NCBI GenBank assembly: GCA_031375485.1
Contig: JANMHX010000025.1
Location: 35,360-99,359 of the forward strand
Direction: 5' to 3'
Source of the DNA: Gemmatimonadota bacterium
GTDB taxonomy: Bacteria; Gemmatimonadota; Gemmatimonadetes; Gemmatimonadales; GWC2-71-9
Length of the DNA stretch: 64,000 nucleotides
The notes under the pieces are model-generated. The model worked only from the letters and a program-made list of their open reading frames with translations. It was not told the origin of the DNA and made no database searches. Numbering within the stretch: position 1 is the first letter of the stretch; every line of letters starts with the position of its first letter. The position numbers were made by a program, and so were the translations under genes. Below are positions 2,748-46,672 of this stretch, piece by piece.

Positions 2748-5114
2748 TCAGTTGCTGTACGACAAGGCCGCCGCCGTGGAGATCCGCATCGCCCGGAACG
2801 CCGGCCACGCCGAGGCGATGATCGATACCCCGACCACGACGACGAGCCACCGACCGACGCCGCTCGGTTCGGGAACATAGATAACCGGCACCGGGATCAT
2901 GATGCGTCCGAAAGCTTTGCCCAACAAAACGCTCATGGGAAGCGAGAGGGGAATGGCCAGGAGCCAGCTCAGAATCCCGATCACGAGCCCTTCCACTTGC
3001 ACCATCGTGAGGATCGCGGCCCGCCGGGCGCCGATGGCCCTGAGCACCCCGATTTCCCGCGTCCGCTCGAGGACCGCCAAGCTCATCGTGGACGCGAGGC
3101 CCAATCCTCCGACCACGATCATCAACTGCGACATCGTCATCAGGAAGCCCGCCACCATCAGGAGATGGTCCTCGACCGACCGGCGGCTCTCCGCGAGGAG
3201 CTGGCTCCCCGCCACCGCGAATCCTTGGGTCTCCAGTTCATCGCGCAGGCGGCGGCTCAATTCTCCCTGGGCGGCCGGGACTCGGTCCAGGGCCGACACG
3301 ACGGCCCGATCGATGGTGGCCGTACCGGCCATCGTGGCCATGATTTCCCGGCTGGTGTGCGCCAGCGGCGAGACCCCGGATTCGACCACACCCACCACCG
3401 TCCAATCGGTCCGCCGTCCGTCGATGACCAGGGGGACCACCGCCCCGACCGCGAGCCGAGGCTCTTCGTCCGCTAAACGCCGGTTGACCACCAGGGCGTT
3501 TGAATCGCCGGCGGCAAGGAGCCGGCCCGTCTGGAGCGAGTAACCGGACATTACGGAGCCGAGGGGCGCGGCGCTGATCGGAAAGGTGTTGCCCACGGTG
3601 CCGTCCGGCCGCGGAACGGCAGCCCGGCGGGCGCTCCATCCCTCGACCTTGGCAACACCCACCACGCCGGCCACGACGGCCTCGATGCTGTCGGCCGCGT
3701 GGGGCGTTGAAAACCGGATGGCGATGTCGTACCGCATCGCGTCGAACTGGGCCCCAACCGATCGCTGAATGGCCGCCCGAAGATTCAGTGCGCCCAGGTA
3801 CACCGCCCCGGCGGTGGCCAAGGTGATCAGCGTGAGCGCCATGCGCTGACGGCGGCGGAACGCGTTCCGAAGACTCAACAACAGCGGCCGGGCCAACCCG
3901 CTGACCCGTTGAACCCAAGCCGGCGCCGCGCCTCCGCCATCGATGCCAACATCGCGGAGCGCCTCGCTCACCGGAATCCGGCAACCCCGCACGACCGGGA
4001 TGGCGGCGGCAACGAGCGGGAGTAACGCTCCAGCGGCCAACTCGACGCCGAAGACCCAGCCCGGAATCCCAAACCCGGCCGTGTCGAAATTCAGGAGATC
4101 GGCGGTGAACTCGGCGTACCACCGGCCGATCACCGCCGCCGTCGGCAGGGCCACCAACGAGGCCACGAGGCCCAGGACCAAAGCCAGACCCAGATACATC
4201 CTGGCCAACTGACCCGACTGAGCGCCGATCGTCTTCATGACGCCGATCTCTCGAACCTGCCCGGCCAACATCGCGGTGATCAAGTTGATGACCAGAAACC
4301 CGCTCAGCAGCAACGCCAGCACACCGAAGGCACCCTGGGTATAGAGCAGCGAGTCGATCTGGCCGGCATGGATGTGACGGCCCGGTTCCGGGACATCAAC
4401 ATCAGCCACTGGGCGGCCGGTGGCTTCCACCACGGCCTTGACGTCGAAGGCAATCCGGCGCACCGCGTCTTGGTCGAGCGACCGGTCCTCGACGACGAAC
4501 TGAAGTTGGTTGAACGTGGCGGGCGCGCCCAGCCTCATGAGGGTGGCCGGGGTGACGAAACCATACACGACGTGTTCCATCCAGCCCGGCGCCAGGCCGG
4601 CGTCTCGGGCGATGCCGGCGACCGAGAGTGTCACCGGCGGGGCCGTACCGATCTGGACGGCCGCGACGTCGCCCACGCCGATGGCGGCGAACTCGACCGA
4701 CGACCGTTCGATCACGATCGCCCCATCGGCCGGGGGCCAGGCACCCGACTCCGGTTTCAGCCGACCGATCCCGACGGCCCGGAAGTCGGCCATCGAGAAC
4801 AGAACCGCGGTCCGCCAACCGCCTTGGGCCATGATGCTGGCGGTCACCGTGCGCCGGGCCTCGGCAGTCGCCACGCCCGGCACCGCCTCGATCCGCGCCA
4901 ACAGCGCCGAGTCAATCGCGTCGGTACGGATCGTCGCGGAGGCCGGATTGGTGGCCATGAAGCCCTCGCGGGTTACCCGGCGAACCATGGCCCAGGTGTT
5001 GAGCACCGATCCGGCGCCGATGATGCCCATCGCGATGGCCACCACCACCAGCACGGTCCGCCCCTTGTGGAGCCACACATCTCGGAAGACCTTCCGCCAG
5101 CGCGGCCTAAGCAT
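2748..5114 (-). CDS. ABC transporter permease, duplicated FtsX/MacB-type
   Basis: 788 aa. The N-terminus [25 protein letters not shown] is typical. Two 4-TM FtsX modules each follow a large extracytoplasmic domain. It overlaps the upstream ATPase gene by 8 bp. Confidence 0.9.
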
Positions 5115-14525: not shown

Positions 14526-16010
14526 ATGAGGCCACGGGTTGGTTACCTGGTGATCGTGCTCGCGCTGGGTTGCAAGTTCGAGAAGGAGCTCCTGGCCCCT
14601 CCTCCTGACCGGCTCCGGTCTCCCCCAATAGAACGACCCCCGGCCCTCCCGCCCACCGTCGTCGACATGCCCCTGCTGATCGACCTCAATACCGCGGTCG
14701 ACATGATGGAGCACGAACTGCCCAGACGAATGGGCAACTCCGAGACGCGGATTCCAATTCCCGGCAAGAAACGGACGGCATTTGCCTACGAAATCAGCCG
14801 CAGCCCGTTCGAGATCAAGATCAAAGGGGACACCTTTCAGGTCGCGGCCACGATCCACTATCAAGGCCGGGGCTGGTACAATCCACCGATCGGGCCGGAG
14901 ATCGGGGGCTCCTGCGGCACCACGGGAAAGGAACCCCGAGCCCGCGTAGTGATCTCAATCCAGCCTTCCATCAGTCGCGACTGGAAGCTGGTCGCCAAGC
15001 CCACGCTCACCTATCTCGGCCCCCTCACCAAAACCGAACGGGACCAGTGCGAAGTCACCTTCCTCAAGATCGACGTGACCAGCCGGGTCCTCGAGGCCGC
15101 CCGGGGGGCGATCCGGGGCCAGTTCCCGGGCCTCACCGCCAAATTGAAATCGCTGGACGTCAAGGGAGAAGTCGAGAAGGTCTGGAATGAAATCCAGAAG
15201 CCGATCCAGCTGACGGACAGCGTGTGGCTGATGCTCCGACCCGAGGGACTCCGGTTGGGCGCTTTGTCGGGAAGTCGCGAGATGTTGGGCGGGACGGTCG
15301 GAATCCGGGCCCGGCCCAAGATCGAAACCGGACCCAAGCCGACGGTTGCGCTCGTCGCGCTTCCGCCACTCGATGAGAGCGGCGAGGAAAGCGGTCTCAA
15401 CCTGTTGACGGAGGGGCGCTTCGACTACGGGCTGATCGGCGCGAACCTTACCAAGACGGTGGCCGGCATGAAGATCAAGGTGCCGGGAGGAACCATCGAG
15501 ATCAAAGAAGTAGGTGCCTATGGCATTGGCGGAGGTCGGCTGGCCCTCGGCGTCCGATTCACCGGCACCAGTTCGGGGCAGATCTACTTCGTCGGCACAC
15601 CGAAGTACGACGATTCAACCGGCCACATCGTGGTACCAGACCTCGACTACGACGCCTCGACCACACCGCTTCTGGTCAAGGGCCTGGCCTGGCTGAAGGC
15701 TGATCAGATTCGCGACTTCCTTCGGGCCAAGGCCACCTTTCCGTCGGCCGAAACGATGGACCGGCTTTCAACCCTGGCCGTTACCGGGATGAACCGGGAA
15801 CTGGTACCCGGGATCTTCCTCAGCACCTCACTGAACCGGACTGAGATCGTCCGGTTGTTGCCTCGAATTGACGCCCTCTACCTCCAGGCGCACGCCAGCG
15901 GCCACGCGGCGGTCCACGTCACGGATGTCTTCTTTGCGAGCCTGAAAGCTACCGGATCAGATACCACTGGGTCTGGCGGGGCCAGAAAAACTTCCAACCC
16001 TCCTCCGTGA
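14526..16010 (+). CDS. Hypothetical lipoprotein (possibly DUF4403)
   Basis: Internal ATG at 14526 gives [16 protein letters not shown], which contains a lipobox. The family assignment is from memory and is weak. Its 3' end overlaps the convergent M24 gene by 62 bp. Confidence 0.65.
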
Positions 16011-17283
16011 GATGGGCGTCGTCCTCCATCATCACGTAGACCTTCTGCCCGCCCCACTCCGGCACCGCCGTCGCGGTATTGAGCTCGATCGAGATATAAG
16101 AGCCTATCCGCAACGGCTTCCCCGGTCGACCAGGCGCGCTGCCGAACGACACCCCCGCCCCCAATCCATGGCCCTGATTGCCAATCGGATGAGAGTAGAT
16201 CATCGCCTCGATCCCCTGCTTCTTCATCTCCGCCATGGCGCAGTCGTAGGCCTCGGTGTTGAGCCGGCCGGGACGCGAGCAGGTCCTCATCACGGCGTCC
16301 TGCAACGCATTGGTATTGGCCATCGCCTTCTTGAGGCCGGCGGGTACGCCACGCTCACCGGGTTTCAGCACGTACGCCATCTTCTGCCAATCGGTATCAA
16401 ATCCCATCGCCGTGATGCCCATGTCGATGTGCACCACGTCGCCCCGCTGGATGATCGTGCCCTCCAAGGCCGGTCCCGGCGACGATGGCGTGGCGGCATG
16501 TTTGCCCACCTCGTAGTTGCCGCCGCCGAGCCGCTGGACCCGGACGTCGGGCTGAAACCACGTGGTGGCCCCCCGCCTGGCATACTCGTCGAACAAGAAC
16601 CGCCGCACGTCCCCGACCGTGGTCTTGCCCGGCGTGATCACCGCATTCGACAGGGCCTTCTTCGCGATCTGGTCGGTGATCTTGACGAGGTGTTGGTAGG
16701 TGGCAAACTCCTCGGGAATCCGGGTATCGAGGTGTTCTTCGATCAGCGCGTCCGCGCTGATCTCTCGGCACTCGGCGCTCGGCGCTCGGCACTCGGCGGT
16801 GCTGTCGAGGGCTTGGTGGATCAGGGTGTAGGTGGCGTGGGTGAGGGTTCGGGTGACGCCGCGGGGGCCGTCCATGCCGAGGGCGATGGTTTTGGGTTTG
16901 AAGCGGCGGAACAGATCCGAGAGCATCTTGGAGGGGTTCCGGCCCTCGGGCATCGGCTCGAAGTAGGCCTTGATCGTCTCTTCCGGGTAGCCGGTGATCG
17001 AGAACGCCTTGAGCCGGTCGCCGCCGTCATCGGCGAAGATGAAGAAATCGCGGTTGCCGGCGTAGGGCCGAGGCGGCGCGACCGTGTGGACGATCGGGTC
17101 GTTGTGAAACTCCTCGTTGACCACGATCCACATCGCGACGCCGTGGCGCCGCATCATGGGGAGCAGCATTTCGTGACGTTTGGCCAACCAGCTCTCCCGG
17201 GTGGCGAGTTGGGCCGACCACGACGGCACCACGAGCGGTTGCTGGGCCATCGCGAGCAGTCCGGCAAACAGAAGTCCGGTCAT
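15949..17283 (-). CDS. M24 family metallopeptidase (Xaa-Pro aminopeptidase-like), exported
   Basis: Metal-ligand context is present: [27 protein letters not shown] and VMMEDD. Signal-like N-terminus [15 protein letters not shown]. It starts 3 bp after the upstream S9 gene. Confidence 0.85.
16764..16798 (+). repeat. 35-bp heptamer tandem repeat (CTCGGCA CTCGGCG CTCGGCG CTCGGCA CTCGGCG), copy 1
   Basis: Read directly from the sequence. It differs by 1 nt from the copy at 38185-38219 and is closely related to the copy at 41219-41253. It lies inside the M24 CDS and encodes [12 protein letters not shown]. Confidence 0.85.
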
Positions 17284-35410: not shown

Positions 35411-35926
35411 CTACTGAACCGTCACCAATTCGAGGCTGAACACCAGCACGGCATTCGGCGGGATCGGCCCGTTCCCGTTGGCGCCATAGCCCTGTTCCGA
35501 CGGTACGACCAGCAGCCGCTTGCCGCCGACTTTCATGCCGGGCACCCCGTCATCCCAGCCCTGAATGACCCGCTTGTCGCCGATCCGAAAGGTGTACGGC
35601 CTCCCATTGCTGGCGTCGAACTGAGTCCCGTCCGGTAGCGTACCGACGTAGTTGAGCGACGCCGTCGTCCCAACCTTCGCCTCGGCACCGGTGCCGACCA
35701 CCAAGTCTTTGTAGTAGAGGCCCGTAGCGGTCTTCGTCATGGTGGCCACATCGACGCCCAGTGCCGGTGCGAAGGTGGTGGTCGGGATGACGTCAGCGGC
35801 CGGCGCGGCCGGAGCCACAGCCGGCGGCGCTGCGGCAGCCGAGTCGGCGTTGGCCCCGGCGTCGGGTTTCGCGCCACAGGCGGCGAGGATCAGGGCGAGG
35901 GTCGGGTAAATCAGGTTCCGGGGCAT
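35411..35926 (-). CDS. FKBP-type peptidyl-prolyl cis-trans isomerase, lipoprotein
   Basis: Lipobox in LALILAACG. The FKBP core is YVGTLPDGTQFDAS...FRIGDKRVIQGWDDGVPGMKVGGKRLLVVPSEQGYG. Confidence 0.9.
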   Translation of the reverse strand: MPRNLIYPTLALILAACGAKPDAGANADSAAAAPPAVAPAAPAADVIPTTTFAPALGVDVATMTKTATGLYYKDLVVGTGAEAKVGTTASLNYVGTLPDGTQFDASNGRPYTFRIGDKRVIQGWDDGVPGMKVGGKRLLVVPSEQGYGANGNGPIPPNAVLVFSLELVTVQ

Positions 35927-35985
35927 CGAATGACCTACGGGAAATGGTGAGGCGGAAAGATCGCGTCACCACTCCGGCCCGGCAA

Positions 35986-38151
35986 CTACCGCCCGGTCGG
36001 GTCCCGGCGCCCGCTCAGCAACCGGAGCAGCAGTCGCTCCGCCCGAGCCCCGATTCGGTCCTGCCAATCCCGGTCGAGCCGCCATTCGGGGGCCTCCTCC
36101 TGCTCGCACGGTTGGTCCTCCGGCTCGGTGCCGGCCAAGAACACTTCCCGGGTACCACAGTCGCCGTCCCACTCGGAGCCGCCCCGGGCCAGATGGGCCG
36201 TTGCCACGCCATCGGGGACCGGAAACGAGCCGCTCTCGTCCTCGGGATTCGCCTGCCCCAGAAATGCGGCCACGATCGGCAGCGCCGCGGTGGCCCCGGT
36301 CATCCGAAGACTCCGGCCGTCGTCGAACCCGACCCAGACCCCGACCACGAGGGTGGAGGAGTAGGCCACGAACCACGCATCCCGCCAGTCGTTCGACGTG
36401 CCGGTCTTCCCGGCGATGGCGCCGAACCGGCCCCCGACGTCGAGCGCCCGCCCGGTGCCGCGGGTCACCACGCCCTCGAGGGCCGAGGTGACCAAGTAGG
36501 CTGCGGCCGGATCCACGACCCGGGTCACCACCGGTTCGGGCGCCTCGACCCCGGATCCGCCTAACGGTTGGCGGGCCAACACGGCGCGCGACGCCGCCAG
36601 GTCGCCGCCGGTGGCGAACACGCCGTAGGCCCGTACCAACTCCAGCAAAGTGACCCCCGAACTGCCGAGCGCGAGGCTCGGCACCGGATCGAGTGCGCTG
36701 GCGATGCCGAGCCGCCGCGCGGCATCGACGATCCGTTTCGGCCCAACCGCCAAGCCGATCCGAACGAACGGTACGTTGAGCGACTGTTCCATGGCCTGGC
36801 GCACGGTCACCTGGCCTCGGAACTCGTGGTCGTAATTGCTCGGCTCCCACCGGCCGGCGGGCGTCTTGAGACTCAACGGCTCGTCGTCGACGACCGAGGC
36901 CAAGGTGAAGGCGGGGTCTTGGTCACCGTGGCGCTCCAAGGCCGCGAGCGCGACGACCGGCTTGAAGGCGCTCCCGGGCTGACGCCGGGCCTCGGTCGCC
37001 CGGTTGAACTGCGAGGCGCCGTACTCCCGCCCGCCGACCATCGCGAGGATGTCACCGGTTCGCGGATCGATGGCAACCAGCGCAGCCTCGATGCCCCGGT
37101 CCTGAAACCGCGCCAGACCCTCGCGCACCGCCCGCTCCGCCGCCCGCTGGAGCGTGGCGTCGAGCGTGCTCAGCACCGCCACCCCGCGGGCCGGGGTCCG
37201 AGCCGACAACTCGGCCACCGCGAAGTCGCGGAAGTACCGGCTGTCCAGGGTCCGGGAAGCGTAGGTCCGGGTCGGAACCCGGATCCGGCTGGCCCGCTCG
37301 GCCGCCGCTCGAGTGATCCGGCCTTGCTCGACCATCAACTGGAGCACCAAGTTCCGCCGCCGCCGAGCGGTCCACGGATGCCGGCTCGGCGAATATCGGT
37401 TTGGCGCGCTGATCATCCCGGCCAAGAGCGCGGACTCGGCCGGGCCGATCTTCCGGGCGTCCTTCCCGAAGTAGAAGCGGGCGGCCGCCCCAACCCCGTG
37501 GATCTGGTTGCCGCCGTCCTGGCCCAAATAGATCTCGTTGAGGTAGGCCTCGAGAATCTCGGCCTTGTCGTATTGCGCTTCCAAGACCGAGGCATAGGCC
37601 GATTCGCGGATCTTCCGAAGCGGGGTCCGGTCGGCCGACAGAAACAGGTTCTTGGCCAGCTGCTGAGTCAGGGTACTCCCGCCCTGGGCCACCCGGCGGG
37701 CTTTGAGATTGGCCACCAACGCCCCGCCGATCCGCCGGAAATCGAGGCCGTCGTGTTGGTAGAAGCGTTGATCCTCAACAGCCAGTACCGCCTGAATCAG
37801 GTGATCGGGCAGCTCTTCGACCCGAAGGGGAATCCGCTGTTCGGCCAGCCGATCGTCGATCGGGCCGACCGGCACTAGCTCCGCCCGCCGTCCGTCCCCG
37901 CCCCACGGCACCGCTCGCGAATAGACCGCACTCGGCAGCCGGGCCTCGGGGCTCGTCAGCTCGGCGCGAAAGGCCGCCTCGCCGGCGATGCCGAGCCCTC
38001 CCGCCGCCAGCCCCAGCACCAGGACCTGGCCGATCCGCCGGGCCGGAATTCGGGCCCGAAACGCACTGAAGGTCGCTTGCAACCGGGACGTGAAGGCCTG
38101 CCAAGTCACGGGGCGCTCCGGAAAAGGGTTGGGTATCTGTCTTGGACGCAT
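35986..38151 (-). CDS. Class A penicillin-binding protein (PBP1A family transglycosylase/transpeptidase)
   Basis: The GT51 motif is AVEDQRFYQHDGLD. The transpeptidase motifs are SAFKP (SxxK), SLN and KTGTS. Confidence 0.9.
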   Translation of the reverse strand: MRPRQIPNPFPERPVTWQAFTSRLQATFSAFRARIPARRIGQVLVLGLAAGGLGIAGEAAFRAELTSPEARLPSAVYSRAVPWGGDGRRAELVPVGPIDDRLAEQRIPLRVEELPDHLIQAVLAVEDQRFYQHDGLDFRRIGGALVANLKARRVAQGGSTLTQQLAKNLFLSADRTPLRKIRESAYASVLEAQYDKAEILEAYLNEIYLGQDGGNQIHGVGAAARFYFGKDARKIGPAESALLAGMISAPNRYSPSRHPWTARRRRNLVLQLMVEQGRITRAAAERASRIRVPTRTYASRTLDSRYFRDFAVAELSARTPARGVAVLSTLDATLQRAAERAVREGLARFQDRGIEAALVAIDPRTGDILAMVGGREYGASQFNRATEARRQPGSAFKPVVALAALERHGDQDPAFTLASVVDDEPLSLKTPAGRWEPSNYDHEFRGQVTVRQAMEQSLNVPFVRIGLAVGPKRIVDAARRLGIASALDPVPSLALGSSGVTLLELVRAYGVFATGGDLAASRAVLARQPLGGSGVEAPEPVVTRVVDPAAAYLVTSALEGVVTRGTGRALDVGGRFGAIAGKTGTSNDWRDAWFVAYSSTLVVGVWVGFDDGRSLRMTGATAALPIVAAFLGQANPEDESGSFPVPDGVATAHLARGGSEWDGDCGTREVFLAGTEPEDQPCEQEEAPEWRLDRDWQDRIGARAERLLLRLLSGRRDPTGR

Positions 38152-38184
38152 GAGAGGGGCAAAGGGTTTCAGGGTGGAACAGGG

Positions 38185-38219
38185 CTCGGCACTCGGTGCT
38201 CGGCGCTCGGCACTCGGCG
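38185..38219 (+). repeat. 35-bp heptamer tandem repeat, copy 2 (CTCGGCA CTCGGTG CTCGGCG CTCGGCA CTCGGCG)
   Basis: Read directly from the sequence. It is intergenic and flanked on both sides by G-quadruplex-type G-run motifs (38156-38184 and 38219-38242). Confidence 0.85.
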
Positions 38220-38279
38220 GGGGGTGGGTTAGGGTTCAGGGGTGTGAAGGTCGGGCTTCCCCTTGCGAGGAGGTGTTCC

Positions 38280-38522
38280 GTGGCGGCTTCGGTTTCTCGT
38301 CGGCAGGTGGTTGGGGTGATGGCGTTATCGGCGTTGGCGGGTCAGCGAGTTCAGGCTCAGCAACCTCACATGCAGGCGGCCAAGGACAACCTCCAAGAGG
38401 CTTTGCGGCATCTTGAGCAGGCGACGAGCGACAAAGGCGGGCACCGGGTTGCCGCGATCAAGGCGGCCAAGGATGCCCTCGATCACGTCGAGAAGGGCAT
38501 CCGGTTCGACCGGCGGAACTAG
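38280..38522 (+). CDS. Small exported protein (Tat-like signal), unknown function
   Basis: The GTG at 38280 lies 6 nt after a perfect AGGAGG. The N-terminus (M)AASVSRRQVVGVMALSALAGQRVQA has a twin-arginine motif. The mature helical part contains KGGHRVAAIKAAKDAL. Confidence 0.55.
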   Translation: MAASVSRRQVVGVMALSALAGQRVQAQQPHMQAAKDNLQEALRHLEQATSDKGGHRVAAIKAAKDALDHVEKGIRFDRRN

Positions 38523-38525
38523 CGG

Positions 38526-40136
38526 CTAGTTCCGATCGGGAAAGGCCGCCATCGGGAGCCGGGTAATGCCGCGCTCCCGTTTTTGCTTGGCCACCATCTT
38601 CGCCACGTCGTCGAGTAACCGTTTGGCGTCGTAGACGATGCCGTCTTTGATGGTGTACTTGATGCCGCCCACCCGTTCGACTTTGCCGGTCTTGTCGTTC
38701 AACCGGACGAACCCGGAGCCGTAGAGCACTTTCAGGTTGGCGATCGGGTTCTCCGGCACCACGACGAGATCGGCGAGCATCCCGGGACGAATGACCCCGA
38801 AGTCCGGGGCCCGGCCGAGCGGGCGGGTCAGGGTTTCGGCGGCGTGCAGGGTGGCCGCGCGAATCACCTCGAGGGGGTGAAACCCGGCTTCCTGCAACAG
38901 TTCCATTTCCTGAATCGTCGAGAAACCGTAGGTGTTGTAGATGAACCCGGCATCCGAACTCGCCGTGACCCGCCCGCCCATATTCTTGTAATCGTTGAGC
39001 AGTTCGAACCACACCCGATAGAAATTCCGCCAGGCCACCTCGTCCCACGTGGTCCAGTTATAGAAGTAGGCCCCGTGGTTGACGCGGTTCGGGGTATAGA
39101 AATCCCAGAGCGATGGCAGGGTATAGGTCTCGTGCCAGTCGGCATTCCGTCTGGCCATCAAGTCGCGACCCGACAGGTAGGCCGTCATCGTGGGGTCGAG
39201 CGTCACGTCGTGGGCCTTGAGGGTATTGAGCAGGGCCCACCATTTCTCGCCCTTGGGCTTGACCAAGCTCCATTGCCTGGCCACTTGTCCGAAGCGCCAT
39301 TGCTCGTCGTTGTAGTTGTAGCCCTCGGGATACGGCTGCACGTCGGCGTTTTCGTACATCGCTTCGAACAAACCGTAGAAGTGGGTCACCGTGCCGAGCC
39401 CGAGCTTGGCCGCATCCAAGGCGTTGACCTGGTTCACGCCGGTTTGAGCCAGATGGGCCACCGTTCCCATGCCGTTCTTCGCCGCTTCGTCGGTGAGGGC
39501 GCCGAAGATCTCCGGGCGGTAGGACGTCAGCTTCAGCCCGTCGACTCCGCGTTGCTTGGCCTCCCGAACCCAGGCCCGCGCCTGGTCGCCGGTCTGGAAC
39601 GCCGAGGAAAAATCCCAGACGCCTTTGGGAACTTCGTACACCCACATCCGCGGGGCGGTGATTTCATTCTTGGCGCTCCGGGCTTTCTCACTCAGCTGCC
39701 AGGCATCCGCTCCGAACGGCACCCCTCGACCGCTGGTAATCCCGTGGGCCATCCACAGCTTGTAGGCATACTCGGCCTCGGGCGCCTTGGTCCCGTCCTC
39801 GATATGGAGGTGGAGGTCGACGAGGCCCGGCATGACGAACATGCCCTGCACATCGATCTCCTTGGCGGCTCCCGTGGGCCGGCCCTTGGGATCGATCGGC
39901 ACATTCGGAAAACCCACGTCAACGACCTGGGTGATTCGGTTGTTCTCGATCACGATGTCGACCGGACCGCGCATCGGGCCGCCGGTGCCGTCAATCAGAT
40001 TGGCTCCCCGCAGGATGAGTTTGGCCCACGGCCCCTCGCCTTCGGCGCGGGCGGGGGCGGGTTTGGCCGATGGCTGGGCAACGAGCGTGACGGGCGCGAC
40101 AAGCGCCAAGGCGAGGACGAGCGCAGTGGGTGACAT
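38526..40136 (-). CDS. Amidohydrolase family protein, exported
   Basis: Signal peptide MSPTALVLALALVAPVTLVAQ. The HxH metal motif is LVDLHLHI, with a C-terminal SDAGF motif. Confidence 0.85.
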   Translation of the reverse strand: MSPTALVLALALVAPVTLVAQPSAKPAPARAEGEGPWAKLILRGANLIDGTGGPMRGPVDIVIENNRITQVVDVGFPNVPIDPKGRPTGAAKEIDVQGMFVMPGLVDLHLHIEDGTKAPEAEYAYKLWMAHGITSGRGVPFGADAWQLSEKARSAKNEITAPRMWVYEVPKGVWDFSSAFQTGDQARAWVREAKQRGVDGLKLTSYRPEIFGALTDEAAKNGMGTVAHLAQTGVNQVNALDAAKLGLGTVTHFYGLFEAMYENADVQPYPEGYNYNDEQWRFGQVARQWSLVKPKGEKWWALLNTLKAHDVTLDPTMTAYLSGRDLMARRNADWHETYTLPSLWDFYTPNRVNHGAYFYNWTTWDEVAWRNFYRVWFELLNDYKNMGGRVTASSDAGFIYNTYGFSTIQEMELLQEAGFHPLEVIRAATLHAAETLTRPLGRAPDFGVIRPGMLADLVVVPENPIANLKVLYGSGFVRLNDKTGKVERVGGIKYTIKDGIVYDAKRLLDDVAKMVAKQKRERGITRLPMAAFPDRN

Positions 40137-40219
40137 GGGTGCAAGCTACGACGCGGCGCCCCACTTGGGGAGGGCCGCGCGACACCGTATTCTTCACGCT
40201 CACCCGAAGGAGCGCTGCC

Positions 40220-41257
40220 ATGGCACCGAAATCGATGTTGATCTTGGGCGGAACCGGATTCATCGGCCCGAACACCGTCAAATACGCCGTGGCTCGCGGA
40301 CACCGAGTCACCATTCTGACCCGCGGGCGGAGCCAGACGAAAGTCGCCGACGTCGAGCACCTGATCGGCGACCGGGACAACGATCTGAGCGCCTTGGCCA
40401 AACGGAAATGGGACGTGGTGCTCGACAACAACGCCCGGGATTACCGGTGGGTGGACCGGAGCTTGAAGGCCCTCAAGGACGCGACCGGCCACTACCTGTT
40501 CGTCTCCTCGATCTCGGCATACAAGACCGACTCGATGGGTTATCGGTTCAAAGACCGGGTGTTGCCCAAGCCGATCATCGACGAAGACTCCGAACGATTT
40601 ACGCCGCCGGCCACTTGGAAGGAGGGCGACACCGCCCCCTACGGTTTGACCAAGGCGCTCTCCGAAAATCTCTGCCACGCGGCCTTCCCGGGCCGGACCA
40701 CGATCGTTCGGCCGGGCCTGATCGTCGGCCCGACCGATCCGACCGATCGGTTCACGTATTGGCCGGTGCGAATCGACGAAGGCGGCGAGGTACTCGCCCC
40801 CGGCAATCCGAACCACGCTGCGCAAGTCATCGACCAGCGTGACTTGACCGAGTGGATCGTCCGGCTCGCCGAGAATGGGACGATGGGCAACTTCAACGCC
40901 ACCGGTCCAACGGGCCGGATGTCGATCGCCGAGATGTTGTACGGCATCCGGGCCGTCACGGCGGCCCCGGTCAGCTTCACCTGGGTTTCCGAGAGTTTCC
41001 TCGAGGAGCAAAAGGTGGCACCCTGGAGCGATATCCCAGCGTGGTCTCCGGGCGAACCGCTGATGTACGTCAACGTGTCGCGAGCCGTCGCCGCCGGACT
41101 CACCTTCCGTCCGTTAGCCGTCACCGCCCGCGACACGATCGAGTGGGACAAGACCCGTCCCTCCGCCGAGCGAGAGAAACGAGCCGCCGGGATGAGCCGA
41201 ACCCGCGAGAAGGAGCTGCTCGGCACTTGGCACTCGGCACTCGGCACTCGGCGCTAG
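40220..41257 (+). CDS. NAD-dependent epimerase/dehydratase (extended SDR) family protein
   Basis: ATG at 40220 is preceded by GAAGGAG. The Rossmann motif is ILGGTGFIGPN. The last 12 codons are encoded by heptamer repeat copy 3. Confidence 0.85.
   Translation: MAPKSMLILGGTGFIGPNTVKYAVARGHRVTILTRGRSQTKVADVEHLIGDRDNDLSALAKRKWDVVLDNNARDYRWVDRSLKALKDATGHYLFVSSISAYKTDSMGYRFKDRVLPKPIIDEDSERFTPPATWKEGDTAPYGLTKALSENLCHAAFPGRTTIVRPGLIVGPTDPTDRFTYWPVRIDEGGEVLAPGNPNHAAQVIDQRDLTEWIVRLAENGTMGNFNATGPTGRMSIAEMLYGIRAVTAAPVSFTWVSESFLEEQKVAPWSDIPAWSPGEPLMYVNVSRAVAAGLTFRPLAVTARDTIEWDKTRPSAEREKRAAGMSRTREKELLGTWHSALGTRR
41219..41253 (+). repeat. 35-bp heptamer tandem repeat, copy 3 (CTCGGCA CTTGGCA CTCGGCA CTCGGCA CTCGGCG)
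   Basis: Read directly from the sequence. It forms the 3' end of the SDR CDS and ends 1 nt before the interlocked stop codons of two convergent genes. Confidence 0.85.
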
Positions 41258-42459
41258 CGGAGCAGTCGAAAGCGTCGGACGTGAGGGGCGTCGTCGGAGT
41301 CGAGCCAGGTTCCGAGAATCTGATTGGGGCCGATCCAAGTGGGCTCGAAACCGGCCGGTAGGTCGACCGACGTAAGCCAGGCGCCTTCCCGGTCGAAGAT
41401 GGTCCACCGGCCGGGGCGGGTTCGCTGGGACGGCCCGAGGTAGTCCCGAAACCAGAGTTCTCCGTTGGGGCCGGGCACGACCCGGTCGAAGGCCGGCTTG
41501 GTCTCGGGAATCGGCGCCATGCTGAGGAAACTCCGGTAGCGGGCCCGGGCATCCTCGCTAGGCAGTTCGGCCATCTCGAGGTGGGCGGCGAGGTCGGCCG
41601 CGGTCACCGGCTCAGGCTGGTAATCCCGGCTAATCCGGCGCACCAGGCGGCCGGACCCGCTATAGAGGTCGAACCCGTACTGGTCGGTGGGAGCGACCCC
41701 GATCAGGGTGTCCGAGATCCCGAACCAGGATGAACGGCCGAACGGCACGGCGGCGATGTTCACCGAGACCACCTTGCCGCCCTGGGTTTCGACCCGACTC
41801 ACAAGTTGGGTGCCGGGGAACCGGCCGACCTCTGTCACCGACCCATCGGCGCCGACGATCTTGAGGTCGGCGGAGTCACGAACCAGGCCGGAGCTCGTGG
41901 GTTCCCGGCCCGACCGTGCGGGGCTGACCACGATTCGGCCCCCCGGCAAAGCTCCAAGCACGACATTGGCCAAAGTCCCTTGGCCGAGTTCGATCATGCC
42001 GCTGCGGACGATCTTTCCGGTTGACGCGAGGACCGAAAGGCGGCGGGTGCCGCGATCGAACACCAGTAACGAATCACCGGCGCCCACCGTGAGTGAGGCA
42101 ATCTGCTCGAACTCACCCGGCCCCGACCCTTTCCGCCCCACGCTCTGGAGCCGATTGCCCATGCCGTCATAGAACCGAATTTCGCTGGTCCCCTGATTGG
42201 CGACCGCGATCCGCCCGTCCCGAAGCTCGAGTGCGATCACGGTGCCGCTGAACTCATCCGCCGAGTCACCAGTTCCCCCGAGATCCAATCGCGGCACCGA
42301 GTCGACGACATACCACCCCGGCGCGCTCGGCACGGCCGACGTGACGATCGCGATCCCCGCGCTATCCCGCCGGACTGTGCCCGGGGGCGACGACGACGGA
42401 GCATCCCCGCACGCCGACAACCCAACCAGGGCGCCAGCCAGCCACCAGAGCGCTTTCAT
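41254..42459 (-). CDS. Six-bladed beta-propeller (NHL/TolB-like) lipoprotein
   Basis: Internal ATG at 42459 gives MKALWWLAGALVGLSAC, which contains a lipobox. Repeated blade-like segments with GSGPGEF-type motifs are present. Confidence 0.75.
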   Translation of the reverse strand: MKALWWLAGALVGLSACGDAPSSSPPGTVRRDSAGIAIVTSAVPSAPGWYVVDSVPRLDLGGTGDSADEFSGTVIALELRDGRIAVANQGTSEIRFYDGMGNRLQSVGRKGSGPGEFEQIASLTVGAGDSLLVFDRGTRRLSVLASTGKIVRSGMIELGQGTLANVVLGALPGGRIVVSPARSGREPTSSGLVRDSADLKIVGADGSVTEVGRFPGTQLVSRVETQGGKVVSVNIAAVPFGRSSWFGISDTLIGVAPTDQYGFDLYSGSGRLVRRISRDYQPEPVTAADLAAHLEMAELPSEDARARYRSFLSMAPIPETKPAFDRVVPGPNGELWFRDYLGPSQRTRPGRWTIFDREGAWLTSVDLPAGFEPTWIGPNQILGTWLDSDDAPHVRRFRLLR

Positions 42460-42595
42460 GCCGGATAGTACGAACCCCCCAGGCCTCCGGGCAACCAATT
42501 CCTGCACGAGGGGCTCAATCCCGCCATCCCTGTGGGGGGCGCTGGCGCTCCTCGCGGAACGGAGGCATCTTTAGGAACGTGCCTTCCCTTCACCA

Positions 42596-43528
42596 GTGAC
42601 CCGGATACCGATGGCGGAAATCAGCCGCCCACGGGGCTGGCTCAAACATCTCGCACCGCTCGACGTACTCACCATGGTCTATGTGGTGAGTTCTTTTCTG
42701 ATCGTCACGGTTCAAGCCGCCGGTGCCCACAGCCTGCGGCTTTCCGGCATGATGCTCGGGTCGCTGGTGCTAGCCCACGTCCTGCTGTTGGCGTTGGTCC
42801 TGTTGGCGGCGGAAGCCCGGCAACGCCGAACCTGTTCAACCCCCTGCCTGTTGGCGGAGTGGTATCCGTTGGTCGTACTCCTCGCGGTCTATGGCTCGCT
42901 GGATATCATCAACGGGCCCCGGGAAGCCGCCGCGATGTCCTATGATTCCGTCGTTCAGCGATGGGAACTGGTCACCTTTGGGCGTCAACTCGCCCATGAC
43001 TGGAGTCGGTCCCGGAACGGCAGTGCCATGGCCACCTGGCCGCTTTCGATGGCGTACCTCGCGTTCTTTCCGATGGTGATCTCGGCGCCGGCGGTACTCT
43101 GGTGGCGGGGACATTTCGAACGGGCTCGTCAAACCATCTTCGGCATTTCGTTGGCATTCTTCACCTGCTATCTCGTCTTCCTGCTCTTTCCAGTTGCCGG
43201 ACCGAACTACCTGTGGGGCTGGCCGGCGGTCGGCGGCCAGGCCAACCTCCCCGCCCAGCTCGTGCGCGACCTCATTGACCGGGGCGACTCCTGGGGCTCG
43301 GCGTTTCCCTCGAGCCACGTCGCCGGCTCGATGGCGGCCGTGCTCCTGGCATTCCGGAACTGGCGCCCCCTCGGCTGGACCCTGCTCCCGTTTGCCCTCG
43401 GCATTATCGTCGGCGTGGTCTACTTCCAGGTTCACTATGCCGTGGATGCGGTGGCCGGCCTGACCATCGCCGTGCTGGCGACGATCGCCTCCTCCCGCCT
43501 TTGCCCCTTGGCTCGCAACGCCACATGA
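42596..43528 (+). CDS. PAP2 superfamily phosphatase (membrane)
   Basis: The FPSSHVAGS (PSGH-like) and HYAVDAVAG (HxxxD) motifs are present with multiple TM helices. The start is GTG. Confidence 0.8.
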   Translation: MTRIPMAEISRPRGWLKHLAPLDVLTMVYVVSSFLIVTVQAAGAHSLRLSGMMLGSLVLAHVLLLALVLLAAEARQRRTCSTPCLLAEWYPLVVLLAVYGSLDIINGPREAAAMSYDSVVQRWELVTFGRQLAHDWSRSRNGSAMATWPLSMAYLAFFPMVISAPAVLWWRGHFERARQTIFGISLAFFTCYLVFLLFPVAGPNYLWGWPAVGGQANLPAQLVRDLIDRGDSWGSAFPSSHVAGSMAAVLLAFRNWRPLGWTLLPFALGIIVGVVYFQVHYAVDAVAGLTIAVLATIASSRLCPLARNAT

Positions 43529-44520
43529 GCCGGACCTTCCGCCTCCTTGCGATCCTGGCGGGAGTGACGGTGCTGGTCCTACTGGTGCGGCAGGTGGGGC
43601 TCGAGGCCCTGTGGGCGGGGTCCCGCGCCGTCGGGTGGTTGTTGATTCCGATTCTTCTCCTCCACGCCGCCGTGTATGGCCTCAACGCGATCGCGTGGTG
43701 GATCACCCTGGCGCACGAGCCGAACTGCCCCCCCTTTCTGAGCGTGTTCCGGATCTCCGTGGTCGGCTTCGCCATCAATTTCATCACCCCGGTGGTCAAT
43801 GCCGGAGGTGAACCGTACCGGGCCGCCGCCCTGGCGGCCTGGCTCGGCACCCGCCGCGCGGCCGGATCGGTGCTTCAGTACGCGCTGCTCCATGCCATCA
43901 GCTCGCTCTTGATGTGGTTGACGGCGATCGGGTTCGCGCTCTGGGTCGGCCAGATCAGCGGCGAAGTGAGGCTGGCCTTGGCCGGGGCTTGGGCGCTGAT
44001 TGCCGTTGCGCTCCTGGTCGTCCTCACCGGGCACCGCCACGGCTTCGTCGCCAAACTCACGACCGGACTGGCGCGGCTTCGCCTCGGCCGTTTCTCACGG
44101 TGGCTGGCCGCCCGCGAGGCGGCATTCGCGGCGGTCGATGCCCAGGTCACTGCTCTGCATCGGGAGCGGCCCGGGCGCTTGGCGCTCGCGATCTTGGTGG
44201 ACTACGTGTCTCGCTGGGTGGCGGCCGCCGAGCTGCTCTTGGTGGCCTACGGGTTGGGTGTAGCCGTCAGCGTCCCGGCGGCCGCGATGATCTCCGGCCT
44301 GTCGGCCCTCGCGGTCAACCTGTTCTTCATGCTGCCATGGGAGCTCGGGTCCCGCGAGGGATCGCTGTATTTGTTCTTTGCCATGGCCGGCGTACCCGCC
44401 TCCGTTGGACTGGTGGCCGCGATGGCCACCCGGCTCCGGGAGTTCTTCTGGTGCGGGCTCGGACTGGCGCTCGCCGGGCGATCGAACAACCCAAACCCCG
44501 CGCCACCTGCGTCCACCTGA
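43525..44520 (+). CDS. Lysylphosphatidylglycerol-synthase TM-region / flippase-like (UPF0104) membrane protein
   Basis: ATG at 43525 forms an ATGA overlap with the PAP2 stop. The N-terminus is MSRTFRLLAILAGVTVLVLLVRQVG, followed by about 8 TM helices. Confidence 0.75.
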   Translation: MSRTFRLLAILAGVTVLVLLVRQVGLEALWAGSRAVGWLLIPILLLHAAVYGLNAIAWWITLAHEPNCPPFLSVFRISVVGFAINFITPVVNAGGEPYRAAALAAWLGTRRAAGSVLQYALLHAISSLLMWLTAIGFALWVGQISGEVRLALAGAWALIAVALLVVLTGHRHGFVAKLTTGLARLRLGRFSRWLAAREAAFAAVDAQVTALHRERPGRLALAILVDYVSRWVAAAELLLVAYGLGVAVSVPAAAMISGLSALAVNLFFMLPWELGSREGSLYLFFAMAGVPASVGLVAAMATRLREFFWCGLGLALAGRSNNPNPAPPAST

Positions 44521-44524
44521 CCGG

Positions 44525-45487
44525 TCAGCCCCGCCGCGGCTCCGGCGGACCCGCGACCGATTCGAAATACTCAGCCATTCGTTTCCGAACCGACTCATCA
44601 GGCAATCGCCCCATGGCGGCCCCCATGTTGTCGCGCAGGTTGGCCGGCTTACTGGTACTCGGGATCGCCGCGGTCACCGCCGGATGGCCGATGACGAACT
44701 TGAGGAAGAATTGCGCCCAACTGGCGACGTCGATGTCCTTGGCCCACTCCGGCAAGGGCTTCCCGGCCACCCGGGGGAACAGCGCCGCGCGCCCGAACGG
44801 CAGCGCCACCAACACCCCGATCTTCCGCTGCAAGGCCAGCGGCAAGATCACCTCCTCGACATTGCGATTGGCGATCGAGTAATCGATCTCGATGAAGTCG
44901 AGCGGCACGTTCCGCATGATCGACTCAAGCTCGCCGTACTGACTGTCGCTCGTCGTGGTCACCCCCAGGTATCGAATCCGCCCCTGCTGCTTGAGTTCCT
45001 TCAGCACGCCGAGTTGGGTCGGCACGTCACCGAGGTTGTGGACCTGAATGAGATCGATCTTGGATTTCTTGATCCGGGCAAACGAGGTCTCGATTTGGGC
45101 CAGGGCCGCCGCCCGGTCGGCCGATCCGCCGCGGCTTGCCACGTTGACCTTGGTGGCCCAGAACACTTGGTTGGCGACACCGAGCTCCTGGACGATGCCC
45201 CCGGCGACCTCCTCGGAGGCGCCGTAACTCGGTGCGGTGTCGAACACCGTGCCACCGAGATCGACCATCGTCTTCATCACCTCCCGAATCGCCGAGACGT
45301 CCTCGCTCCGGGCCACTTGAGAAAACGTGGCCGAGCTGCCGAGGCCGACCACGGGAATCGCTTCGCCGGAGGACGGGATCGGACGGGTAATCAGCTTCTT
45401 GCCTTGGGCTACCAACACCCGGAGGTCAACGGCGAGGGCGGCCGCAACCCCAGCGGTCAAGCCAATCCACTCACGACGACTTGGCAT
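44525..45487 (-). CDS. Aldo/keto reductase with Tat signal
   Basis: ATG at 45487 gives MPSRREWIGLTAGVAAALA, which carries a twin-arginine motif. The AKR body contains FDTAPSYG and IDLIQVHN. ATG 45499 is an alternative start. Confidence 0.85.
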   Translation of the reverse strand: MPSRREWIGLTAGVAAALAVDLRVLVAQGKKLITRPIPSSGEAIPVVGLGSSATFSQVARSEDVSAIREVMKTMVDLGGTVFDTAPSYGASEEVAGGIVQELGVANQVFWATKVNVASRGGSADRAAALAQIETSFARIKKSKIDLIQVHNLGDVPTQLGVLKELKQQGRIRYLGVTTTSDSQYGELESIMRNVPLDFIEIDYSIANRNVEEVILPLALQRKIGVLVALPFGRAALFPRVAGKPLPEWAKDIDVASWAQFFLKFVIGHPAVTAAIPSTSKPANLRDNMGAAMGRLPDESVRKRMAEYFESVAGPPEPRRG

Positions 45488-45559
45488 CAGGATCTCCATC
45501 AGAGGTCTGAAAAGGTACCGGAATCCTGGAGGCCACGGCAACACGGCACATCGGGTCCG

Positions 45560-46672
45560 TCAGACCCACGAGGGCAGGCGTCCGAGTCCCGTCGCCCCGA
45601 GGAATCGGGACATCCGCTCGAGTTCCGCTTGAATCGCCGTTCGTAAGTCCGGCTCGATCATTCGCTCGGTCACAAAACCGATGTCGGCATCGAGGACGCC
45701 CTCGCGCACCGAGAGGTTACCCCACCCGATGACCTCGTCCCGCCACAAGAGCGGCAACGCGTAGTATCCGAGTTTTCGTTTCGGGGCCGGGGTATAGGCC
45801 TCGAACCGGTAGGCCCAGCCCCAGAACAGCTCAAACCGCCGGCGGTCCCACACCACCGGATCGAACGGGGCGAGGAACCGGGCCTCGTCGAACCGGGCAT
45901 CGGGTTTTCTCGGCACTGACTCGTCCGCGGGCCAAAACCAATCGATGCCGTCGATCCTGGCCCGGGCCAGCCGAGCCTTGGCCCGCAGGAGGGCCCCCTT
46001 CCGCTCGGCTCCGAGTTGCGGGGCGCCGAACCGGAGCCGGTTCACCAGCCCACTCAGACTCGCCGCCGGCAACGGAGCGTACTGCTTGACGACCACATCC
46101 ACCAACGCGTCCATTGCCCGTCGGCGGGACTCGGCGTCGGTCGGCCGGACCGGATGCGTATGGGCGGCATAGATCCGGATCCCGCTCTCCCGCCGCACCA
46201 CCCGAAGCAACCCCTGATAGTGCAGGTTGTTGAGGAGATGCGACGTGGCATTCGAAGAGCCGCCCCAATGATTGGTGACCCGGCCGTGACCGAAATGTTC
46301 GTCGACCACGCGGGGATGCACCGGTCCATGTTCCTGGACGAAGTCCAACAACGCGCGGCTTCGTTTCTTGGTGCTGACCCGCCAGGCTGCTGGAGCTACC
46401 CGCGGGTGCATCAGGGCCTGCGAGGCGCGAGGCAGGAAGCCGTAGTTGACGAAAAAATCTTCTTCGATATCGAGTTTGGCGTAGCGGCGCTCGAGATCGC
46501 CGGCGGTATAACCGGCTACCCGGTGGCGGAGCGTCAGGTCTTGAGCCCGGGCCGGCGCCCGAATCGGATCGGCTTGCACGAAGCCAAGTTTCGTAATGGC
46601 CCGGCCGAGTGTGGTGGGCGGAAACAACGAGCGGGCCACGGCGTAACGCCGAAGCCGGGCGAGCGCTGTCAC
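45560..46672 (-). CDS. YcaQ-like winged-helix DNA glycosylase (HTH_42 family)
   Basis: The N-terminus LGFVQADPIRAPARAQDLTLRHR carries a Q-x-D motif like that of E. coli YcaQ. The C-terminus YYALPLLW is typical. The GTG start overlaps the upstream stop (GTGA). Confidence 0.8.
   Translation of the reverse strand: MTALARLRRYAVARSLFPPTTLGRAITKLGFVQADPIRAPARAQDLTLRHRVAGYTAGDLERRYAKLDIEEDFFVNYGFLPRASQALMHPRVAPAAWRVSTKKRSRALLDFVQEHGPVHPRVVDEHFGHGRVTNHWGGSSNATSHLLNNLHYQGLLRVVRRESGIRIYAAHTHPVRPTDAESRRRAMDALVDVVVKQYAPLPAASLSGLVNRLRFGAPQLGAERKGALLRAKARLARARIDGIDWFWPADESVPRKPDARFDEARFLAPFDPVVWDRRRFELFWGWAYRFEAYTPAPKRKLGYYALPLLWRDEVIGWGNLSVREGVLDADIGFVTERMIEPDLRTAIQAELERMSRFLGATGLGRLPSWV

Follow-up and report, generated by a model that had tools for sequence, protein, structure and literature searches.

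The STRR sequences of heterocystous cyanobacteria (Calothrix/Nostoc) are dispersed tandem heptamers, mostly non-coding and described as intergenic. Rickettsia palindromic elements (RPEs) are about 100 to 150 bp long, palindromic, and of fixed family sequence, and they can lie in frame. REP and BIME sequences consist of imperfect palindrome units and are associated with the RAYT transposase. Here we describe another dispersed heptamer, (CTCGGCR)n, beginning with a 64,000-nucleotide stretch of a Gemmatimonadota contig (JANMHX010000025.1, positions 35,360 to 99,359), which we call the window. One copy lies in frame within a gene for an M24 peptidase. A first reading of the window's letters, here the original prediction, had singled out this copy and offered two non-exclusive readings, a small element able to insert in frame, as RPEs do, and a contingency repeat. 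A full-text literature search found no published papers containing the unit sequence, and nothing relevant on heptamer repeats in Gemmatimonadetes.

The Xanthomonas heptamer GGGAATC occurs in about 185 copies of 2 to 26 units, with a mode of four, and about 90% of them are intergenic (Rehm et al. 2015, PMC4692102). The copies lie nearer to the upstream open reading frame (ORF), 70 to 75 of them are arranged as inverted pairs, and related species differ in tract length (PMC4692102). GGGGA(C/T)T in Nostoc PCC 7120 has a similar profile, and G-quadruplexes were proposed for both heptamers; the authors found no regulatory role for GGGAATC (PMC4692102). According to the earlier work cited there, heptamers are over-represented among bacterial simple sequence repeats (SSRs), and polymerase slippage has been suggested to favour this unit size (PMC4692102). 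In marine Beggiatoaceae, TAACTGA is found as 2 to 6 or more repeats at about 170 sites, just upstream of start codons and with a few copies in ORFs; the unit also occurs in distant phyla, and translational control was proposed (MacGregor 2015, PMC4679880). Heptanucleotide SSRs can also be phase variable, for example in Haemophilus influenzae (PMC2651432).

We suggest that the M24 copy (copy 1) belongs to a dispersed heptamer microsatellite family, that it expanded in the ancestor of an M24 subclade and was then frozen in length, that it has no switching function, and that a hairpin beside it is coincidental. We give this reading a probability of about 75%. Reading of the sequence and a pattern search found three (CTCGGCR)5 tracts in the window:

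16764-16798, + strand: copy 1, (CTCGGCR)5, which is (YGCCGAG)5 on the coding (-) strand, in frame in the M24 peptidase gene
38185-38219, + strand: copy 2, five units, in a divergent intergenic spacer, 33 nt upstream of the start of a PBP1A-like gene (ATG at 38151, - strand)
41219-41253, + strand: copy 3, five units, the last 12 codons of an epimerase gene, LLGTWHSALGTRR*

The units of copy 1 are, in order, CTCGGCA, CTCGGCG, CTCGGCG, CTCGGCA and CTCGGCG. Variant units occur once each in copy 2 (CTCGGTG) and copy 3 (CTTGGCA). The pattern CTCGGCR x3, with one mismatch permitted, gave nine overlapping matches in the window, all confined to the three tracts, compared with 0.00 expected from 100 dinucleotide shuffles. 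Tandem Repeats Finder (TRF) independently recovered the three period-7 arrays and reported no further substantial heptamer array in the window. A search of the window for four units with up to three mismatches found no decayed or extra copies. The three copies, their positions, their five units and their common strand are thus as originally predicted.

The tract is a direct repeat, and single tracts are not palindromic. In RNA folding, the CUCGGCR strand had z-scores of +0.8 to +2.3 and its complement had a z-score of -1.5, so that the tracts fold no better than shuffled sequences. Within the unit, neither G nor C occurs three or more times in succession. The flanks of copies 1, 2 and 3 have no mutual similarity, and an Rfam search of the whole window at the gathering threshold found no family.

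The gene that holds copy 1 has the following position:

15949-17283, - strand: gene for an M24 Xaa-Pro-peptidase-like, two-domain protein of 444 amino acids (aa), identified by ORF, Pfam, AlphaFold2 (AF2) and Foldseek

Pfam Peptidase_M24 (PF00557) matches residues 201-426 (E=6e-12). The AF2 model has a predicted local distance difference test score (pLDDT) of 86.8, and its best Foldseek matches are Xaa-Pro peptidases in the PDB. The N terminus resembles a signal peptide, probably ending in A-M-A before a Q. Copy 1 begins at codon position 3 of T162 and runs to codon position 1 of E174; it translates to 12 residues in frame on the minus strand, as originally predicted. In the AF2 model, these residues form a loop that follows helix 149-160 and precedes strand 173-176, between the N-terminal domain and the catalytic domain. 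The pLDDT of the predicted loop is 78, compared with 93 and 90 on its two sides.

The closest relatives of the window protein are Gemmatimonadota M24 peptidases. In a 30-sequence alignment that included the window protein, seven residues at the copy 1 site were missing from 22 of the 29 orthologs, which read (G/A)-P-------EAxxRF at this position. Alignment with orthologs, which the original prediction had called for, identified an insertion, and the AF2 model places it in a loop. The carriers are the window protein, P0001-P0005 (88-91% identity, with a DST(A/P)... segment), and P0009 and P0010 (74-76%). The segments of the last two, AECRGTVALCR and AECKGTAARCR, are unchanged in length. A seven-residue insertion corresponds to a net gain of 21 nt, or three units, and the reading frame was kept because three units make exactly seven codons.

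We then compared 33 distinct protein variants that cover the region. They came from many assemblies and comprised three 90%-identity clusters around P0001-P0003, plus P0004 and P0005; 32 were full length, at 444 aa. The length of the segment was constant, both cysteines (C-x6-C) were kept, and all differences within the segment were point substitutions. No tract-associated frameshift was present in these 33 assembled sequences. The sole frameshifted variant, P0142, breaks about 70 residues downstream of the tract. Short cluster members (157, 105 and 305 aa) were considered as tract frameshifts and rejected, because they are C-terminal fragments that begin at an internal Met, plus one downstream frameshift.

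At the DNA level, the five-unit length was kept in M24 genes that are 85-91% identical. In L119 (metagenome-assembled genome [MAG] GFS_5453), the 35-mer is 100% identical to copy 1 in a gene that is 84.8% identical as a whole. L117, whose gene is 90.7% identical, has three changes, all in the first unit, and L123 has several changes. The tract has also decayed in P0005, with the peptide loop retained. The original prediction had raised the case of orthologs that keep the peptide without the DNA repeat, and this was found in part: in L120 and L122, the loci of the P0009 and P0010 genes, the heptamer periodicity is only faint and the loop and C-x6-C are kept, whereas most orthologs have no insertion at all. 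Synonymous and non-synonymous change in the tract was not robustly different from that in the rest of the gene. Extra DNA-level constraint at synonymous sites of the tract was likewise not robust; the lowest P value was about 0.04, in one of six pairs (L119). The M24 copy is therefore an old in-frame insertion of three units that is invariant in length and changes by point substitution. Its age, its fixed length and a pattern of change typical of normal coding DNA speak against phase variation. The M24 gene also shares a 62-nt 3' overlap with the convergent DUF4403 gene (15949-16010). The same overlap occurs at L119:2534-2595 and L120:2825-2886, and it is kept in relatives as distant as P0009.

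We propose that the three extra units arose in an ancestor of one subclade of Gemmatimonadota M24 peptidases through growth of a short proto-repeat in the loop between the domains, perhaps by replication slippage or microhomology-templated copying. The insertion-free ortholog L187 reads GCGCCGAG-GCGTCGAG at this site, and its codons GGC GCC GAG GCG TCG AGT CGG contain one perfect and one near unit. Variants one or two units longer or shorter would put the enzyme out of frame and would presumably be purged. The tract now drifts through point substitutions, as other parts of the gene do. Both cysteines that the tract introduced are kept without exception, even in genes with decayed DNA periodicity, which suggests that the C-x6-C loop was co-opted, probably to form a disulfide-stapled loop on the surface of a secreted enzyme. 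The DSTAEC motif that the carriers have in common suggests, but does not prove, a single origin of the insertion.

Beside copy 1 there is a hairpin that the original prediction had placed next to the repeat:

16741-16762, no strand assigned: perfect 9-bp inverted repeat GATCAGCGC-gtcc-GCGCTGATC with a 4-nt loop, one base from the tract, encoding ISADALI

The hairpin does exist, but such repeats occur at chance level. The window has four distinct perfect inverted repeats (six hits as counted) whose arms are 9 bp or longer and whose loops are 3-8 nt, compared with a mean of 5.0 hits, counted alike, in 30 first-order Markov simulations. The repeat is not palindromic in L117, L119, L123, L120 or L122. 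We judge that it is a coincidence of the ISADALI codons and lies outside the element. A 71-nt M24 segment appeared to fold stably because it included this chance hairpin. Another perfect 9-bp hairpin, CGGAACTAG-cgg-CTAGTTCCG at 38514-38534, lies on the junction of two convergent genes and holds both of their stops, that of a small ORF (38522) and that of an amidohydrolase gene (38526). It could be a bidirectional terminator.

To see how widely the unit is dispersed, CTCGGCR x3 was scanned against one genome per GTDB species. The scan of related genomes bore out the predicted dispersal, with at least 116 loci (those matched were labelled L001-L116), at least 35 of them from Gemmatimonadota MAGs. 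The unit is common in this phylum, and individual MAGs have several loci: SMAG_U1736 at least nine (13 tracts), VAR_78_metabat_238 at least six, and SOY_31_metabat_400 at least five. Among the matches listed, to which the next statements apply, the family also occurs in Thermoanaerobaculia and Vicinamibacteria (Acidobacteriota), Phycisphaerales, Chloroflexota, Streptomyces, Halomonas, and others. Tracts have 3 to 44 units and so measure 21 to more than 300 bp; in Gemmatimonadota the mode is four, and three and five are also common. By a gene call based on GC content at third codon positions (GC3), 78 of 127 tracts fall between genes, and the others are mostly at gene ends. Tracts adjoin gene ends in both orientations, and inverted tract pairs are present in related MAGs.

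The unit number of non-coding copies changes at orthologous sites. In the spacer between tandem FtsX/MacB-type permease genes, three MAGs have a 4+4 inverted pair (L098:540-607), a single 8-unit tract (L004:414-469), and five units with a partial inverted copy (L065:1293-1327). A -10-like GGAAGATAAT precedes several tracts, and the idea that tracts mark transcript 5' ends was rejected; this flank belongs to a single orthologous locus, where it is the leader of an oppositely oriented FtsX/MacB-type gene. In three Halomonas species, tracts with 5, 12 and at least 6 units (L029, L033 and L076) follow a similar flank, catcatNctg(cggcg), before (CTCGGCG)n, which suggests that they are one orthologous locus with a variable unit number.

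In the 882 kb of sequence fetched, there were 121 period-7 arrays, 22 of them with other units, and only 1-5 arrays for each of periods 5, 6, 8 and 9. Other heptamers stand directly beside CTCGGCR tracts in compound arrays at L109, L107, L110, L016, L105 and L027; these are GGGCCCT, GGGGATC (Xanthomonas-like), GCAGGCG, CTGCCGG and GGGTATA. Very long CTCGGCR arrays of 44, 33 and at least 35 units were found at L092:2832-3139 (Vicinamibacterales chromosome OZ244838.1), L044:678-908 (Candidatus Palauibacter) and L039 (Phycisphaerales), the last of which is broken by an assembly gap of Ns.

Copies in coding sequence are not confined to the M24 gene. In-frame tracts lie between Pfam domains in MutS (L060), an MrfA-like helicase (L035), Lhr (L062), a molybdopterin oxidoreductase (L005) and an ImuB-like protein (L114). 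The family is therefore tolerated in the linkers of several proteins, as it is at the M24 site. In the Gemmatimonadaceae MutS gene (L060:6224-7999, - strand), a four-unit tract is in frame at residues 525-534 (RSALGARHAAG), just after MutS domain V. A slippage-prone repeat thus lies within a mismatch-repair gene.

Copies 2 and 3 could be compared with L125, a soil metagenome contig that is syntenic with window positions 35411-46028 at about 85% identity. Copy 3 lies at the junction of two genes:

40130-41257, + strand: gene of the NAD-dependent epimerase/dehydratase family, its 3' end made of copy 3
41254-42507, - strand: convergent 6-bladed beta-propeller-like gene, whose L125 ortholog has a tract as its C-terminal tail

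The copy 2 ortholog in L125 has 8 units, compared with 5 in the window, and a 16-nt indel adjoins it. The counterpart of copy 3 (L125:6105-6150) has the reverse orientation and follows directly after the epimerase stop codon. It thus lies across from copy 3 at a palindromic CTAG (window 41254-41257), at which copy 3 ends and which gives stop codons to both convergent genes. The inverted tract in L125 therefore encodes the C-terminal tail of the propeller protein, which ends in ...APHVRRFRLLR* in the window. The epimerase ends in ...VLAAWHQRRG* in L125 and in other orthologs, and in ...LLGTWHSALGTRR* in the window. The conserved Trp of this tail is encoded by the CTTGGCA unit of copy 3, and the ancestral tail codons, CTC GCC xxx TGG CAC, were already similar to two units. 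The difference in orientation possibly arose by two independent gains, by inversion, or by differential loss from an ancestral inverted pair. Neither promoters nor terminators turned up when the surroundings of copies 2 and 3 were scanned. Non-coding copies thus change both unit number and orientation, and the predicted pattern of five units on the + strand, true within the window, is not a rule of the family. A strand bias of the window copies was also considered and rejected: there are only three (chance about 0.25), copy 3 is inverted in L125, and the GC skew is flat.

Tracts are associated with gene 3' ends. Among the matches listed, 20 of the 57 intergenic tracts that face a 3' end are within 9 nt of the stop codon, compared with 6.3 expected from uniform placement within the same spacers. 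By the same expectation, 4.1 tracts should lie within 9 nt of a called start, and none did, although the start calls are crude. Examples of stop-adjoining tracts are at L019, L032, L033, L045, L068 and L098. Two Gemmatimonadota tracts begin 2-3 nt past tRNA 3' ends, on the same strand, which extends the association beyond protein-coding genes:

L009:3804-3838: tract adjoining tRNA-Met at 3841-3916
L112:3178-3205: tract adjoining tRNA-Arg at 3209-3283

Several observations weigh against an expanded and then frozen microsatellite. Of the two insertion-free orthologs examined, L187 alone shows the proto-repeat clearly, and L188 is less clear. In a neighbor-joining tree, the two insertion-bearing groups are not sisters and fall in an unresolved cluster with insertion-free sequences, so that a single origin needs either later loss or a tree that fails to resolve the groups. 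The identical 35-mer in L119 could reflect a degree of constraint on the DNA itself, or gene conversion among the copies. The per-genome copy numbers of the family are lower bounds. Finally, slippage alone leaves unexplained why CTCGGCR recurs across phyla and why it prefers 3' ends.

The alternative that survives best, although we consider it unlikely, is a functional cis-element. In this scenario, the tracts would be a protein-binding array or a REP-like RNA 3'-end element; the intergenic copies would serve in termination, stability or regulation, and the M24 copy would have been kept partly for that role. The excess of tracts beside stop codons, the two tracts at tRNA ends, the inverted pairs, which are potential intergenic hairpins, and the perfect conservation of the 35-mer in L119 are in its favour. 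However, tracts adjoin gene ends in both orientations, single tracts have no predicted structure, there was no Rfam match, and no terminator-like or promoter-like sites were found. The synonymous-site test was not robust, and the M24 tract decayed in P0005, P0009 and P0010 while the loop was kept. For the analogous Xanthomonas family, the study authors found no regulatory role (PMC4692102).

The tracts might also be something other than passive products of slippage. A dedicated process might write or target them with a preference for gene 3' ends, both at stop codons and at tRNA ends. Such a process could replace the final codons of one or the other gene of a convergent pair, and it would be common to several phyla or transferred among them. 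We regard this as doubtful, and rank it below a cis-element. If it were true, the tracts would make up a class of repeat element that has so far gone unrecognised, one tied to 3' ends and paired with a cognate protein.

Lower still, we place a small RPE-like mobile element that actively inserts a cassette of about 35 bp into new sites, coding sequence included. The likeness that the original prediction drew to RPEs holds only loosely, as that of a dispersed repeat tolerated in frame; copy 1 is an in-frame loop insertion with parallels in other linkers. The three near-identical five-unit copies at unrelated sites, the tract on opposite strands of the epimerase/propeller junction in two genomes about 85% identical, the occurrence of CTCGGCR in several phyla, and the in-frame copies in linkers of unrelated proteins are all consistent with mobility. 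However, the tracts have no terminal inverted repeats, target duplications or common flanks. The unit number runs continuously from 3 to 44, so there is no fixed cassette, and the direct repeat is not palindromic and has no stable fold. At both coding copies, the ancestral sequence was similar to the unit beforehand, in keeping with expansion in place. No candidate transposase or mobility enzyme turned up, though no search aimed at one was made.

A contingency locus, in which one-unit slippage turns the M24 peptidase on and off, is very improbable and, for copy 1, contradicted: a 7-bp unit is not a multiple of three, so that a one-unit change frameshifts the gene, and intergenic copies do differ in unit number between relatives, but all 33 M24 variants have equal segment length with the P0142 frameshift far downstream, five units are kept across genes 85-91% identical, point substitutions interrupt the repeat, five units are short for a hypermutable contingency tract, and the host is a housekeeping-type peptidase rather than a surface or host-interaction gene.

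We therefore return to copy 1 as an expanded, length-frozen member of a heptamer microsatellite family. Read in this way, it is a clean natural example of a microsatellite fixed as protein, in which the Cys-x6-Cys loop was kept and the DNA periodicity decayed. For annotation, in-gene tracts in these genomes should not be taken as phase-variation switches without population evidence.

The comparison with known systems is as follows. Like phase-variable SSRs, copy 1 has a 7-bp tandem unit in which a change in count would alter the reading frame or, elsewhere, the flank spacing, and this unit, not a multiple of three, lies in an ORF. Unlike them, its unit number is invariant in the coding copy, with no polymorphism among the 33 variants; it is short, it is interrupted in relatives, and its host is not a surface, host-interaction or restriction-modification gene. 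Like RPEs, copy 1 is dispersed and in frame, and it adds a peptide that orthologs lack in a tolerant region. Unlike RPEs, it is a 35-bp direct microsatellite without hairpin potential, from a family with variable unit number, and not a palindromic fixed sequence of 100 to 150 bp. REP and BIME units are palindromic and single CTCGGCR tracts are not, although inverted pairs exist in related MAGs.

The dispersed heptamers are closer. STRR and CTCGGCR are both dispersed tandem heptamers that differ in units and base composition, and here a CTCGGCR copy is translated. TAACTGA stands at gene starts, whereas CTCGGCR is at gene 3' ends, with no tract within 9 nt of a called start among the matches listed. 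With the Xanthomonas and Nostoc families, CTCGGCR shares dispersed 7-bp tandem units, a mode of about four with a long tail, a mainly intergenic position closer to the end of the upstream ORF, a minority of copies in genes, inverted pairs, length variation at orthologous spacers, and no established function. It differs in having no G-runs, and hence no G-quadruplex, in occurring in Gemmatimonadota and other GC-rich phyla, and in having a fixed in-frame coding copy. G-quadruplex potential is also not a feature of STRR or TAACTGA. CTCGGCR is thus a new entry on the list, a GC-rich heptamer family without G-quadruplex capacity in a poorly studied phylum, and it weakens G-quadruplex-specific explanations for why bacteria favour 7-bp units. 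It has the features of a dispersed heptamer family, namely one tandem 7-nt unit at scattered loci, mostly intergenic and near ORF ends, with a unit number that varies at orthologous loci. (CTCGGCR)n is the same kind of repeat as STRR, GGGAATC and TAACTGA.

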